A stretch of DNA of 64,000 bases, from the sequence record PZ386977.1; one strand, written 5' to 3'. This document shows positions 38,174-51,062 of this stretch, piece by piece. The notes beneath the pieces were generated by a model. It ran no database searches, was not told the DNA's origin, and saw only the letters and a list, made by a program, of their open reading frames with translations. Numbering within the stretch: the stretch's first letter is position 1; each line of letters starts with the position of its first letter. Position numbers and translations under genes: made by a program. The DNA comes from a phage.

Positions 38174-38752
38174 TTAATTACCACGGGCTGCATTAGCAAC
38201 GGCGTAAGCGTACTGAACATTAGCGTCTTTAAATGTACCTTTAGAGGTATCTATTTCTGCCTTAAAGCCGCCTTTAGCCATAACATCGGCAAATTCTTTA
38301 CGGAAAGCCATTGCATCAAGACCTTTCCATGATGATTTATGCTTGGCAAATTCAAGACCAGCGAAATTGACCGCTTTAGCCAGTTTATTATCAATAACCC
38401 ATTTACCGGCTTTAGGCACAAACTTCGGGCCTTTTTGTTTAGAGAATAGTTTTAAATTCCATCGACGAAGGTCACTGTCTGCTTTAACAAAAGCTGCGTC
38501 TAAGTTACTAGCAACAACATCTTCAATATGGGCAAATTTAAGTCCGTCAACTTCAATATTTAGATCGTTACGCCAGCGAAGTCCTTCCCAAGCGAAGGCT
38601 TTAAAGTCGGAAGCCTTTGTAGCTAAGTACCGTTCAATAGGAGCTGTTTTAGGGTCAAAGCCGTTTCCGCCACGATAAGTCCACTCGTCCTTATTAATGC
38701 CTTGAGCTTTTCCTGCAAAGGCTTCGGCGATAAATTCTTTATACGTTTTCAT
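38174..38752 (-). CDS. internal head protein (IPIII-like) with capsid-targeting leader
   Basis: 192 aa; starts MKTYKEFIAE| (prohead-protease LxE-type site). Confidence 0.75.
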   Translation of the reverse strand: MKTYKEFIAEAFAGKAQGINKDEWTYRGGNGFDPKTAPIERYLATKASDFKAFAWEGLRWRNDLNIEVDGLKFAHIEDVVASNLDAAFVKADSDLRRWNLKLFSKQKGPKFVPKAGKWVIDNKLAKAVNFAGLEFAKHKSSWKGLDAMAFRKEFADVMAKGGFKAEIDTSKGTFKDANVQYAYAVANAARGN

Positions 38753-38777: not shown

Positions 38778-39092
38778 TTATTCTTTAGGGAAGTTTTTAG
38801 AGTATGCGTCATAAAGTTTATTACCAATACGACGGAAGACTTTAGCTGCAAAACGGTTTTCAGGGTTTTTAATCATGATTTGCATCATGTAAGTTCCTGC
38901 ATCCGAAAGAGCTTCTTCGTAGTACCCATTAATTTCTTTAAGAGTCCTACGTTTACCGCCAGGACCATCAACGGTAATTTTCCATTTACCTGTAGAAGTG
39001 CGGCTCGGTGGCTCAACTTGTTCAATCCAAATATAACCACCTTCAACGCGTTGGTTGGCGGATTCTGCAATAAATTCTTTATACGTTTTCAT
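38778..39092 (-). CDS. internal head protein (IPII-like) with capsid-targeting leader
   Basis: 104 aa; starts MKTYKEFIAE. Confidence 0.75.
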   Translation of the reverse strand: MKTYKEFIAESANQRVEGGYIWIEQVEPPSRTSTGKWKITVDGPGGKRRTLKEINGYYEEALSDAGTYMMQIMIKNPENRFAAKVFRRIGNKLYDAYSKNFPKE

Positions 39093-39729: not shown

Positions 39730-40026
39730 CTATTTTTCTGAAGCGCCTGAAATATATTTTTCAAGACGTTGTTTCATCAGAGAGCCGTTCTTAGCGATTT
39801 CTTCCGGCTTATCGCACATACGTAACAAGGCTTCAAGCTTAGCGATATCACTGGTGCGCTCAAATTTGCGAGTATCTATCTTACTAGCAAGTTCAGAAAT
39901 ACGTGCTAATAGACTTTCGGCTTCAACCAAAGCTGCACCTAGCTTAGTTGCAAATGTGTCAGTAGCTTCGTTAAGAATAGATTCTGATAAAAATTCATTA
40001 TATGTTTTCATATATACGCTTTCCAA
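39730..40026 (-). CDS. internal-protein-like protein with capsid-targeting leader
   Basis: 98 aa; starts [10 protein letters not shown]. Confidence 0.7.
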
Positions 40027-47427: not shown

Positions 47428-47506
47428 AATATTCTCCTCATGTTTTTATAGGTCTATAATAACACATCTAGGGAAGAAGTAAACAACTTTTTCAGTAAGT
47501 TATAGA

Positions 47507-47533
47507 CCCCCTAAAGGGACCCGAAGGTCCCCA
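47507..47533 (-). terminator. stem-loop module (GGGACC-UUCG-GGUCCC) after stop codon
   Basis: identical 27-mer to 29306..29332. Confidence 0.4.
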
Positions 47534-47537
47534 TTCT

Positions 47538-48158
47538 TTACTTACGAGTTTTTGCATACTGAGCAGCGTCAGCAGCCAAACGACCTGCCTGACGAAGTTT
47601 TTCTTTAATCGCATCGTGAAGTGGTTGAGTATACTTCAAACCTTCGATAGTCAAATAAAGACGATAAAGGTCTGGGGTATCAAGGTTGTTGATATGTTGG
47701 CCATTACGAAGACTGTTGAATTCACGAACGAGTGAAGATGTATCGGATTCAATATCACGAACAAGCGAAGATAGTTGTTTATATTTTTTTTCCAGGCTAG
47801 AAGTATCAAACTTAAGAGCAGGAGCTTTAGGAGTTGCTTTTACTTCCGGCTTAGGCTCAGGTTTTGCTTTAGGGGCCGCAGGTTTAGGAACGGTAGGAGC
47901 AGGTTTTACTTTAGGCGAACCCGATTTAGCAGAAACACCACCACTAACAATATCTTTGAATGCTTTAGAAGCTCTGTAATATTCTTTTTGGGTGGAAGTG
48001 TCGATACCGTACATGGCTTGAACGTTTTTGAAAAACTCTGTACTAGTTTTTGTACCAGAAATAGCATCGTAAGCAGCTTGCCATTTCTCTTTTGTCATAC
48101 GTACACCGGCTTCGGTGATTACTTCCGTTTCGGCTAAAAATTCATTAAAAGTATACAT
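47538..48158 (-). CDS. internal-protein-like protein with capsid-targeting leader and Pro/Ala/Lys-rich segment
   Basis: 206 aa; starts MYTFNEFLAE; KVKPAPTVPKPAAPKAKPEPKPEVKATPKAPALK low-complexity block. Confidence 0.65.
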   Translation of the reverse strand: MYTFNEFLAETEVITEAGVRMTKEKWQAAYDAISGTKTSTEFFKNVQAMYGIDTSTQKEYYRASKAFKDIVSGGVSAKSGSPKVKPAPTVPKPAAPKAKPEPKPEVKATPKAPALKFDTSSLEKKYKQLSSLVRDIESDTSSLVREFNSLRNGQHINNLDTPDLYRLYLTIEGLKYTQPLHDAIKEKLRQAGRLAADAAQYAKTRK

Positions 48159-48193
48159 TGATGGTCCTTAGAAAGTGGGTTTATTGTTTACTA

Positions 48194-48201
48194 TATTTAT
48201 A
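48194..48201 (-). promoter_or_regulatory. late promoter TATAAATA
   Basis: minus-strand TATAAATA between tRNA-cluster terminator and the 48158 start. Confidence 0.5.
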
Positions 48202-48202
48202 C

Positions 48203-48230
48203 AAAAAAGCCCCAACCTTTCGGAAGGGGC
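48203..48230 (-). terminator. intrinsic terminator ending the tRNA operon
   Basis: minus-strand GCCCCUUCCGAAAGGUUGGGGC followed by UUUUUU. Confidence 0.6.
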
Positions 48231-48239
48231 TATATACCT

Positions 48240-48420
48240 TGTCGGGGTTTCCACCTACTAAGGCAAGTGTTTGTACGAAACGCCGGGATTCGAACCCGGT
48301 TATTAAGCAGTTGACGCTACTCAATATTTTTAAAAGGCCATATCTCGACCATATCCGAACGTTCCGTCAAAAACGCTACTCGGCCTACGGCAAAGATATT
48401 TCCTCGAATCGATAATTATG
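48240..48420 (-). ncRNA. possible small stable RNA with tRNA-like 3' end (cf. T4 species 1/2 RNAs)
   Basis: canonical T-arm CCGGGUUCGAAUCCCGG at 48283..48299 followed by acceptor-like CGUUUCG, but no cloverleaf could be drawn by hand. Confidence 0.3.
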
Positions 48421-48534
48421 TGCGCCGTTTCTGCTGTGATGTAAGGGGATATTAACGAATCATAAAGATTTATTAAGACCAGTCCTTACTCAGGGAACAT
48501 CAGTCCGACGACTTGCCGGTAGCGACCCGGCTTC

Positions 48535-48879
48535 TTATTTTGACATATCATCAATTTGTTCTCTACGTCTACGCCATAGATTAATTACTTCATCAACACA
48601 TTCGGCGTTTGATATATGACGGCAATAATATAATGATTCGCGTTTCTGGAATCGATGTTGCAATGGGATTTCGTTTAAAAGGTCTTTACGGTCAAAGTAT
48701 TCAAAACTAGTTAACCCAGAACGGTTTTTAAGGAACTTCCAATGACCAAATTCATTTTGAACATAGACGTAATCGGCATGCTGATACAGCGAATTAATTA
48801 ACCTATCGGAAATAACTGTTTCACGTTCGTTAAAATAAAACGTTAAATCATGAACTACCAGATAAACATTGCCTTTCAT
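48535..48879 (-). CDS. hypothetical protein inside tRNA cluster
   Basis: 114 aa from ATG with GAGGAAA SD; track ORF 48535..48927 starts at TTG overlapping tRNA-Arg. Confidence 0.5.
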   Translation of the reverse strand: MKGNVYLVVHDLTFYFNERETVISDRLINSLYQHADYVYVQNEFGHWKFLKNRSGLTSFEYFDRKDLLNEIPLQHRFQKRESLYYCRHISNAECVDEVINLWRRRREQIDDMSK

Positions 48880-48897
48880 ATTTTCCTCACTTAAAGT

Positions 48898-48974
<77 letters not shown>

Positions 48975-48978
48975 TATT

Positions 48979-49053
48979 TGGCGGACGTGATAGGATTCGA
49001 ACCTATAACCAATCGCTTAACAGGCGATCGCTCTGCCATTGAGCTACACATCC
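48979..49053 (-). tRNA. tRNA-Asn (anticodon GUU), CCA encoded
   Basis: anticodon loop CUGUUAA; T-arm AUAGG-UUCGAAU-CCUAU. Confidence 0.8.
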
Positions 49054-49057
49054 AAAT

Positions 49058-49144
49058 TGGTGGGGAGTGATGGAGTCGAACCACCCGAGTCGCAATGACA
49101 ATGGATTTACAGTCCACACCGCTACCTCTACGGGATAACTCCCC
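49058..49144 (-). tRNA. tRNA-Tyr (anticodon GUA), long variable arm, CCA encoded
   Basis: anticodon loop CUGUAAA; 87 nt; T-arm GGUGG-UUCGACU-CCAUC. Confidence 0.7.
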
Positions 49145-49156
49145 TAATTCATAATT

Positions 49157-49231
49157 TGGTGGCCCTGGGTGGAATTGAACCACCATCTGGCGATTATGAG
49201 TCGCTTGCTTGAACCTTCCAGCTACAGGGCC
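49157..49231 (-). tRNA. tRNA-Ile (anticodon CAU, lysidine-type) or elongator tRNA-Met, CCA encoded
   Basis: anticodon loop CUCAUAA; sits at the T4 tRNA-Ile position. Confidence 0.7.
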
Positions 49232-49232
49232 T

Positions 49233-49308
49233 TGGTGCTGATTGACGGAATCGAACCGCCGACCTTCTCATTACAAGTGAGTTGCTCTACCTACTGAGCT
49301 AAATCAGC
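49233..49308 (-). tRNA. tRNA-Thr (anticodon UGU), CCA encoded
   Basis: anticodon loop CUUGUAA; acceptor GCUGAUU/AAUCAGC. Confidence 0.8.
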
Positions 49309-49313
49309 AAAAC

Positions 49314-49403
49314 TGGCGGAGGCGATAGGATTTGAACCTATGAGTCGCCGGAGCGACTGCCGGTTTTCAAGACCGGTGCATTAAACCACTCTGCCACGCC
49401 TCC
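49314..49403 (-). tRNA. tRNA-Ser (anticodon UGA), long variable arm, CCA encoded
   Basis: anticodon loop CUUGAAA; 90 nt. Confidence 0.8.
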
Positions 49404-49405
49404 AG

Positions 49406-49479
49406 TCTCCATACAAGGATTTGAACCTTGGGCCTCCTGATCCCAAATCAGGCGCTCTACCAAACTGAGCTACACGGAG
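49406..49479 (-). tRNA. tRNA-Pro (anticodon UGG)
   Basis: anticodon loop UUUGGGA; T-arm CAAGG-UUCAAAU-CCUUG; no encoded CCA. Confidence 0.75.
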
Positions 49480-49489
49480 TAAATTAAAT

Positions 49490-49563
<74 letters not shown>

Positions 49564-49568
49564 AAATT

Positions 49569-49655
49569 TGGTGCGAGAAGTGGGACTCGAACCCACAAGG
49601 AAATCATTCCGCAGCATTTTAAGTGCTGTGCCTTTACCAATTTGGCCATTCTCGC
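49569..49655 (-). tRNA. tRNA-Leu (anticodon UAA), long variable arm, CCA encoded
   Basis: anticodon loop CUUAAAA; 87 nt. Confidence 0.8.
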
Positions 49656-49656
49656 G

Positions 49657-49729
49657 CTGGGAATAAAGGACTCGAACCTTTGCATCCTGGAATCAAAATC
49701 CAGTGCCTTACCAACTTGGCTAATTCCCA
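49657..49729 (-). tRNA. tRNA-Gln (anticodon UUG)
   Basis: anticodon loop UUUUGAU; acceptor UGGGAAU/AUUCCCA; abuts tRNA-Leu (dimeric precursor as in T4). Confidence 0.8.
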
Positions 49730-50721: not shown

Positions 50722-50751
50722 ACTATAACATAGTCCTATCGGCATGTAAAC
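50722..50751 (-). promoter_or_regulatory. early promoter GTTTACA-N17-TATAGT embedded in perfect 10-bp-arm palindrome
   Basis: GATAGGACTACTATAACATAGTCCTATC at 50713..50740; the -35 overlaps the upstream stop codon. Confidence 0.55.
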
Positions 50752-51062
50752 TATTTTATGCCTTTAGATGAAATAGTATTCTGGCGTTTGACCCCTGTTT
50801 GTGAAAAATCGTGGTTATCGATTTGGTCGACTCGCATAACACCAAATGCAGATTTAATTTTAGCCTTTGAACCTTTTTTGATACTAATTACCATATAAGT
50901 ATCATTTTTCTTATATTCGAAATTTGTTACTTCAACGCCTTGATTAGAAATTGACTTAATAATAGCATTAGCGTATTCATCATCTAACGGGCCGTTAGTG
51001 TTAATAACAAAATTTTTATCCGCTTTAGTAGCTTCCGCGATAAACTCTTGATACGTTTTCAT
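50751..51062 (-). CDS. internal protein I-like protein with capsid-targeting leader
   Basis: 103 aa; starts MKTYQEFIAE; position next to 57B as T4 ipI. Confidence 0.7.
   Translation of the reverse strand: MKTYQEFIAEATKADKNFVINTNGPLDDEYANAIIKSISNQGVEVTNFEYKKNDTYMVISIKKGSKAKIKSAFGVMRVDQIDNHDFSQTGVKRQNTISSKGIK

Follow-up and report, generated by a model that had tools for sequence, protein, structure and literature searches.

A disordered Pro/Ala/Lys-rich linker in a candidate internal head protein of a Mosigvirus phage

We analysed a 64,000-nucleotide stretch of phage DNA (sequence record PZ386977.1; hereafter, the window) and found in the minus-strand gene 47538..48158 a good candidate for a previously unnamed internal head protein of the T4 type. 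The features that argue for this are a capsid-targeting leader, prohead-protease sites, a positionally conserved late-promoter motif, a basic isoelectric point (pI) and the location of the gene within the tRNA/ip hyperplastic region. Its 206-aa product contains a Pro/Ala/Lys-rich tract, which is likely a basic disordered linker that touches DNA electrostatically, and neither a repeat, a tail nor a coat.

Genomic context of the gene

The 1.1-kb region around the gene is 97–99% identical to the Mosigvirus phages ECCR664, ESh15, SSE1, JS09 and HX01, and the local gene order of the window is T4-like. We assign the window to Mosigvirus, i.e., to an RB69/JS09-like T4-type phage. The existence of the gene was confirmed, and the indels that separate it from its relatives come in multiples of 3 nt. 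It is labeled "hypothetical protein" in every GenBank record examined, and the JS09 annotation relates it solely to JS98 gp135.

The window encodes ten tRNA genes on the minus strand (48898–49729), with the IPI-locus gene, 57B, 57A and gene 1 located above this cluster. Between the cluster and the 206-aa gene, at ~48274–48535 on the minus strand, there are unannotated homologs of the T4 stable RNAs D and C (species 2 and 1), which include a tRNA-like GGTTCGAATCC T-arm and were reported in the window by neither Rfam nor ARAGORN. The 206-aa gene is directly downstream of rnaC, between rnaC and the e.8-side genes, and the corresponding interval of T4 holds no gene. In Marfa, PG7 and Kosakonia phage 305, a gene of the same family likewise follows closely downstream of the tRNA cluster.

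A second gene absent from T4 was observed between tRNA-Arg and rnaD. The mechanical ORF at this position (48535–48927, minus strand; 130 aa) uses a TTG start and overlaps the 3' end of tRNA-Arg (48898–48974); the real gene is RB69ORF150c-like (345 nt in JS09) and probably starts at an internal ATG (MKGNVYLVV...).

Distribution and relatives of the family

PHROGs assigned the protein to phrog_2280, the function class of which is unassigned. An exhaustive profile search against 1.84 billion representative proteins returned 14 matches only, and of 50,697 phage records, 139 contained the gene by tblastn. The carriers are all T4-like Enterobacterales phages, including Mosigvirus, Dhakavirus, Winklervirus, Kanagawavirus, Karamvirus, Marfavirus and fHe-Yen9-01. 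Only six loci were recovered by a scan of IMG/VR, and the survey of length variation in the population was therefore based on GenBank phage matches.

Scans of the 206-aa protein against Pfam, NCBIfam and PADLOC gave nothing above noise, a sequence search of the PDB found no relative, and Foldseek against BFVD retrieved the protein's own family only. Fold searches with the C-terminal domain (C-domain) gave generic helical-bundle matches only. Conservation within the family is highest in this domain (FDTS...KKY.QL...NNL[DE]TPDLY...YTQP...), with 64–77% identity across genera.

Membership in the IPIII family (phrog_5341) was considered and rejected, as BLASTP aligned residues 1–26 only and hhalign gave a probability of 6.9% over 24 columns. 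The 206-aa protein is not IPI, IPII or IPIII. Beyond residues 1–26 it has no homology to the T4 internal proteins, and the window phage already has an IPIII ortholog. The architecture is different as well: the two domains joined by a long disordered basic linker are unlike IPI, which is compact (76 residues), and neither IPII nor IPIII has a comparable Pro/Ala/Lys segment. In size the protein is near IPIII (193 aa).

A candidate capsid-targeting leader with two protease sites

[quoted passage not shown] Mutagenesis of IPIII linked positions 4 and 7 to targeting, and positions 8 and 10 to processing by gp21 (PMC9026906). The predicted leader of the 206-aa protein (residues 1–16; 48111..48158, minus strand) consists of the decapeptide MYTFNEFLAE, with F4, F7, L8 and E10, followed by a second protease site, the two sites being LAE10↓T and ITE16↓A. 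All four residues match the IPIII determinants, i.e., an aromatic residue at position 4 (F here and Y in IPIII), Phe at 7, Leu/Ile at 8 and Glu at 10. The targeting determinants are kept in most family members, with a one-residue register shift in some and a loose fit in two distant ones.

At least one [LIV]-x-E site was found at residues 9–19 in all 20 family members examined, including those with ~30% identity and unrelated N-terminal domains (N-domains). In T4, this site is at residue 10 of IPII and IPIII and at residue 19 of IPI. Of the two sites in the 206-aa protein, the [LI]-x-E at residue 10 has the position seen in IPII and IPIII, and ITE↓A resembles the site of IPI. These key leader positions are shared with the T4 internal proteins together with a putative late promoter, the basic pI and the location in the tRNA/ip hyperplastic region.

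The leader pattern is matched by 5 of the 157 ORFs in the window, the 206-aa gene included, and three of the other four are named internal head or virion proteins by PHROGs. These four, all on the minus strand, carry an MKTY.EF[IL].E leader (38174–38752, 38778–39092, 39730–40011 and 50751–51062). The product of 38174..38752 is the IPIII ortholog, which is 93% identical to that of T4; a 93-aa protein (39730–40011) belongs to phrog_3499 (internal head protein), a 103-aa protein encoded at the IPI locus (50751–51062) to phrog_2667, and a 104-aa protein (38778–39092) to phrog_3966, to which PHROGs assigns no function.

The precursor of the 206-aa protein (estimated from its length at ~22 kDa) has a pI of 9.5, which would become 9.8 after cleavage at E16, and removal of the acidic leader would raise its net charge from +10 to +14. 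The IPIII ortholog of the window and two other CTS proteins have a similarly basic pI, so that three of the other four proteins with a leader are basic. The exception is the 93-aa CTS protein, with a pI of 5.5–6.3, which shows that CTS proteins need not be basic. The literature was searched for virion proteomics or other experimental data on family members (fHe-Yen9-01, JS98, Mosigvirus and Kosakonia phage 305), with nothing usable obtained.

Transcription signals and cassette boundaries

An exact match to the T4-type late promoter, TATAAATA (48194..48201, minus strand), starts 43 nt upstream of the ATG, and a Shine-Dalgarno sequence (AAGGA; 48165..48169, minus strand) is located 6 nt before the start codon and kept as AAGGA or GGAA in the orthologs. 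The TATAAATA motif is not enriched in the window (10 observed vs 8.1 expected by chance), and the evidence for a late promoter is the motif and its positional conservation in orthologs rather than the motif count. An (N)ATAAATA element starts 35–50 nt upstream of the ATG in 14 of 14 orthologous loci, including phages with ~30% protein identity, and is regarded here as a putative late promoter. The sequence-only reading had described a leader-bearing, internal-protein-like gene with a late promoter, and the description is supported: the leader and the promoter motif are both in place, the leader agrees with what is known of capsid targeting, protease sites accompany it, and the promoter position is kept in the 14 orthologs.

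Next to the promoter, a stem-loop followed by a T6 run (AGCCCCTTCCGAAAGGTTGGGGCTTTTTT; 48203..48232, minus strand) was read from the sequence and the orthologs. This terminator-like element appears to close the upstream tRNA/rnaD/rnaC transcription unit. The hairpin is also present in JS09, EQ1, CAU_ECP01 and an IMG/VR contig (L005), and in a variant form in JS98 and IME281. It is omitted by a simple stem-loop scan because of a 2-nt internal mismatch in the stem.

Directly after the stop codon there is a palindromic GC-rich stem-loop (GGGACCTTCGGGTCCC) and then TTT (47516..47531, minus strand). Among the 14 orthologs, only fHe-Yen9-01 lacks a comparable hairpin after the stop codon; the other 13 have one. 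The promoter scan predicted a sigma-70/early-type promoter for the next gene (TTTACT-16-TATTAT with TG; 47456..47483, minus strand), and GTTTAC is kept downstream of the gene in most orthologs. Together, the stem-loop and the early promoter (47456–47531) resemble a PeSL-like cassette boundary. PeSLs are mobile regulatory cassettes proposed as mediators of gene shuffling in T4-type hyperplastic regions (PMC2839356), and a boundary of this kind may explain the patchy distribution of the gene. Internal proteins are not discussed in Petrov 2010.

A disordered tract predicted between two helical domains

The full low-complexity stretch covers V71–K116 (47811..47948), of which the peptide KVKPAPTVPKPAAPKAKPEPKPEVKATPKAPALK makes up residues 83–116 (47811..47912). 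Among the 157 ATG-initiated ORFs of at least 60 aa in the window, it is the 46-mer richest in Pro, Ala and Lys (30/46, vs 19/46 for the runner-up). Proline accounts for 11 of the 46 residues against a background of 3.6% (p = 5e-7 per segment; 0.008 when corrected for 16,459 segments), and the local GC content is 48.6% vs 37.3% for the window. The tract is 25% Lys, 31% Pro and 19% Ala, and V71–K116 has a net charge of +8, of the net +10 of the precursor.

The sequence-only reading had placed a repeat tract of the KPAP/PKAK type at 47831..47945 (codons 72–109). This interval overlaps that of the peptide with an upstream shift of ~20–30 nt, and the peptide is there and strongly Pro/Ala/Lys-rich, but it is not a tandem repeat. 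Tandem Repeats Finder detected no array in the tract DNA even at a score of 30, and the only repeated elements are two degenerate copies, one of 36 nt at 75% identity and the other of 31 nt at 74%. The tract is thus a compositionally biased segment and not a periodic array. Motifs of the (S/T)PKK type are a feature of histone H1 tails. None of the form (S/T)P(K/R)(K/R) was found in the tracts of 12 family members (19–46 aa long), each of which has zero or one adjacent basic pair. There is one lysine every 2–7 residues.

An AlphaFold model built with a 17-sequence alignment predicted two helical domains. The N-terminal one (residues 17–72; 47943..48110, minus strand) has helices at residues 23–31, 39–50 and 57–72, and block-mean pLDDT of 81–88 over residues ~20–72. 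The C-terminal one (residues 117–206; 47541..47810, minus strand) is a three-helix domain with block-mean pLDDT mostly of 81–94, and of 77 for the last six residues. The Pro/Ala/Lys-rich disordered basic tract (residues 73–116; 47811..47942, minus strand) connects the two; residues 74–111 all have pLDDT <50, with block means of 31–37 over residues 81–110. The model therefore depicts the tract as an intrinsically disordered interdomain segment, flanked on both sides by helical domains and not terminal.

Immediately after the tract there is a homopolymer (47784–47791; T8 on the plus strand and A8 in the gene). A frameshift at this position in one IMG/VR contig (L005, 3001–3622) and in a five-member protein cluster (P0013) yields a 126-aa form that retains only the leader, the N-domain and the tract. 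Either a sequencing error or a genuine truncation allele could account for this form. The GenBank matches in ECCR664, TB004 and SHP1 align in two or three pieces.

The tract keeps its charge while sequence and domains change

The flanking domains of the window and JS98 proteins are 76–77% identical, and the identity of the tract (37%) is that of a control of composition-preserving shuffles (33±5%). Tract identity is also indistinguishable from shuffles in CHI14 and Marfa, and is two to three standard deviations above their own shuffles in Kosakonia phage 305 and PG7. The net charge of the tract is positive in 23 of 23 members (+3 to +10, ~+0.17 per residue, with 0–3 acidic residues), and remains so down to 30% identity and in domain-swapped architectures. 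Across the family, the tracts are 19–52 aa long and consist of ~20–35% Lys, 15–31% Pro and 15–42% Ala, with Lys at 20–27% in most of them and up to 35% in the two shortest. These comparisons suggest that selection maintains the composition, approximate length and positive charge of the tract, and not its residue order. Composition that is kept, sequence that is not and length that varies fit the profile of a flexible interdomain linker.

At least two types of N-domain and three types of C-domain were identified in the family. Members P0026 and P0028 combine an unrelated N-domain with the standard C-domain. In contrast, Enterobacter phage CIP9 (L012, 1501–2127) and member P0024 retain the leader, the N-domain and a basic tract, followed by an unrelated C-domain, and a third C-domain type is found in P0027. 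The swaps break at the boundary of the N-domain and the tract, as seen for P0020 vs P0024 (nearly identical N-domains, then divergence) and for PG7 vs CIP9. Given that the charge and composition of the tract are kept while the N- or C-domain is swapped, the basic disordered segment is what stays constant in this modular two-domain protein.

Every relative that was found has the tract; the sequence-only reading had named its absence from all relatives as a refutation. That reading had also proposed length polymorphism among isolates, which was observed. Close isolates carry alleles of 206, 208 and 210 aa, with 208 aa the commonest, and they differ by two tandem 6-nt duplications, AGCAAT·AGCAAA (+Ile-Ala) and CCTAAG·CCTAAG (+Lys-Pro). 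Dhakavirus proteins are 202, 205 and 207 aa long. The suspected proneness to slippage is borne out to a small degree only, by the two 6-nt events, and there is no hypervariable array; the variation looks like ordinary small-scale slippage in low-complexity DNA.

What the tract may do in the virion

On balance, we lean towards an internal head protein in which the Pro/Ala/Lys segment serves as a flexible tether and makes non-specific contacts with DNA phosphates. The elements from which this reading starts, i.e., the gene, leader, cleavage motifs, promoter, disorder, and conserved charge and composition, are seen in the sequence. The protein would be transcribed late from its own TATAAATA promoter and enter the prohead scaffolding core via its leader, where the gp21 prohead protease would trim it after LAE10 and/or ITE16. 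The mature protein (~190 aa) would then remain in the DNA-filled head and enter the cell when the genome is ejected. The steps inferred here are packaging, cleavage, injection and contact with DNA. The disordered segment of ~40 residues would be the flexible tether between exchangeable domains, its lysines would contact DNA phosphates non-specifically, holding the protein in the packaged DNA and leaving with it, and the two small domains would each be compact enough to pass through the portal and the tail channel.

Several observations on T4 are relevant here. Its heads hold ~1000 or more internal protein molecules, embedded in DNA at ~500 mg/ml (PMC3012670; PMC7697877), and these proteins are basic and described as embedded in the packaged DNA (PMC3012670, PMC9026906). 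By solid-state NMR, lysine side chains were the only ones of the T4 internal proteins detected in contact with DNA phosphates (reviewed in PMC3012670). A cationic tether is favoured because the tract is flexible and has a lysine every 2–7 residues, which would suit lysine contacts of the kind revealed by NMR, and its conserved positive charge is compatible with electrostatic contact with DNA.

As for the helical domains, they may act as an anti-defence or takeover effector in the host. This is a guess by analogy, made because IPI inhibits GmrSD and IPIII is needed for ECOR17; the protection conferred by IPI* is inhibition of the GmrSD nuclease and not DNA coating (PMC3012670), and IPIII is required for infecting ECOR17 (bioRxiv 10.1101/2022.04.14.488369). 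Several considerations count against the favoured explanation. The literature search gave no experimental data on any family member, CTS proteins need not be basic, and TATAAATA by itself is not enriched in the window. The strong conservation of the C-domain is unlike the fast-evolving, arms-race picture of IPI-type proteins, and the charge of the tract could serve solubility or extension, as there are many Ala/Pro-rich linkers without a DNA role.

The last of these leads to the most serious rival, although we hold it to be unlikely: a passive flexible spacer between independently folding domains, with lysines that provide solubility or extension and have no role on DNA, in what could nonetheless be an internal protein. 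The tract lies inside the chain, flanked by two confident helical domains, its residue order has been scrambled from one genus to another, its length ranges over 19–52 aa, domain swaps occur at its N-terminal boundary (P0020/P0024 and PG7/CIP9), and SPKK-type motifs are absent, all as a spacer would have it. Such linkers are familiar from the lipoyl domains of E. coli pyruvate dehydrogenase E2 and from the (EP)n(KP)n spacer of TonB. Like them, the tract is an extended, flexible, low-complexity Pro/Ala segment that joins folded domains, with free residue order and variable length, and its KPEPKPE motif resembles TonB. It differs in being strongly cationic in all members and, if the protein is packaged, in working inside a DNA-filled capsid. 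A spacer free of such constraints does not readily account for a net charge that stays positive in all 23 members, with no more than three acidic residues, despite sequence turnover and three C-domain types, nor for the tract being the source of most of the protein's positive charge. Moreover, a flexible segment of charge +8 would hardly escape DNA in a head filled at ~500 mg/ml (PMC3012670).

A bolder extension of the tether idea, to which we give still less credence, is a modular platform for DNA-hitched cargo, in which the leader and the polycationic tether keep interchangeable helical effector domains on the packaged genome. Strung out like beads, these domains would pass through the tail and be delivered where the DNA enters, and there they could neutralise the first-response defences of the host. 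The conserved functional core would then be the tether rather than one or another of the domains.

The sequence-only reading had likened the tract to a histone-H1-like DNA-binding repeat tail and proposed that the protein coats and shields incoming DNA, which we consider improbable. The resemblance is real in some respects. Like AlgP and PhaF of Pseudomonas, Hc2 and BpH1, the phage protein has a K/A/P-rich segment of predicted disorder with ~25% Lys and an attached alpha-helical domain; its Lys content is close to the 25% of the AlgP/PhaF KPAA repeats (PMC9239181), its positive charge is kept, and its length polymorphism arises by tandem duplication, as in algP and hctB (PMC9239181, PMC2848022). 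The KPAA tails of AlgP and PhaF are DNA-binding and anchor granules to the nucleoid (PMC9239181), and non-specific binding of a polyanion that tethers a cargo is likewise plausible here, alongside the shared polymorphism among isolates (PMC9239181, PMC2848022). By analogy, AlgP and PhaF may be the closest functional counterparts of a helical domain joined to a K/A/P polycation. The phage tract would not be a member of their group, because theirs are C-terminal tandem arrays of 154 aa, and no homology links it to AlgP, PhaF, Hc2 or BpH1.

More generally, the bacterial H1-like tails are true tandem C-terminal arrays of 72–154 aa (154 aa in AlgP and 72–144 aa in Hc2), built of KPAA repeats in AlgP and PhaF and of lysine-rich pentamers in Hc2 and BpH1, whereas the phage tract is short (35–46 aa), non-periodic and placed between folded domains, without any (S/T)PKK motif and with no more than one KK pair in each tract. 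Nor does a protective coat appear feasible on quantitative grounds. With 370 copies, an assumed IPIII-like copy number, the charges would match ~1.5% of the DNA phosphates; an extended tract of ~110–140 Å corresponds to 32–42 bp, and 370 × 42 bp is ~15.5 kb of 169 kb, i.e., at most ~9% of the DNA. The known case of protection by an internal protein, that of IPI*, is nuclease inhibition (PMC3012670).

A similarly improbable alternative is an accessory of the prohead core or scaffold, like gp67, gp68 or the proposed morphogenetic role of IPIII, which binds the gp22 core and acts in assembly rather than after injection. The all-helical, coiled-coil-like C-domain, the CTS leader with its protease sites, a C-domain conservation unusual for an accessory gene, and the head-assembly aberrations of IPIII mutants (PMC9026906) would agree with this. 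Nevertheless, the gene is accessory, being missing from the T4 interval and present in only 139 of 50,697 records, whereas essential morphogenetic functions are those of core genes, and CIP9, P0024 and P0027 have unrelated C-domains. Furthermore, gp22-type scaffolds are acidic and the 206-aa protein is basic.

Finally, it is likewise improbable that the gene encodes an unpackaged cytoplasmic late protein with a leader likeness that is a by-product of 5'-end cassette recombination in the hyperplastic region: stem-loop/promoter cassette boundaries of the kind that mediates shuffling (PMC2839356) do flank the gene, but the aromatic residue at position 4, Phe/Ile at position 7 and the protease motifs are kept in members with 30% identity and different N-domains, which argues for selection on the leader itself.

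Implications for T4-like phages

T4-like internal proteins are injected ahead of gene expression and, where studied, disarm host defences. Most of them escape identification because only the 10-residue leader is shared. The family described here is "hypothetical" in all 139 carrier phage records and is now a strong candidate for internal proteins. Current concepts are unchanged by this candidacy. If confirmed, the family would add one more injected protein to the therapeutic Mosigvirus and Dhakavirus phages, and the tract would illustrate from nature how a disordered polycation can mediate co-packaging with DNA.
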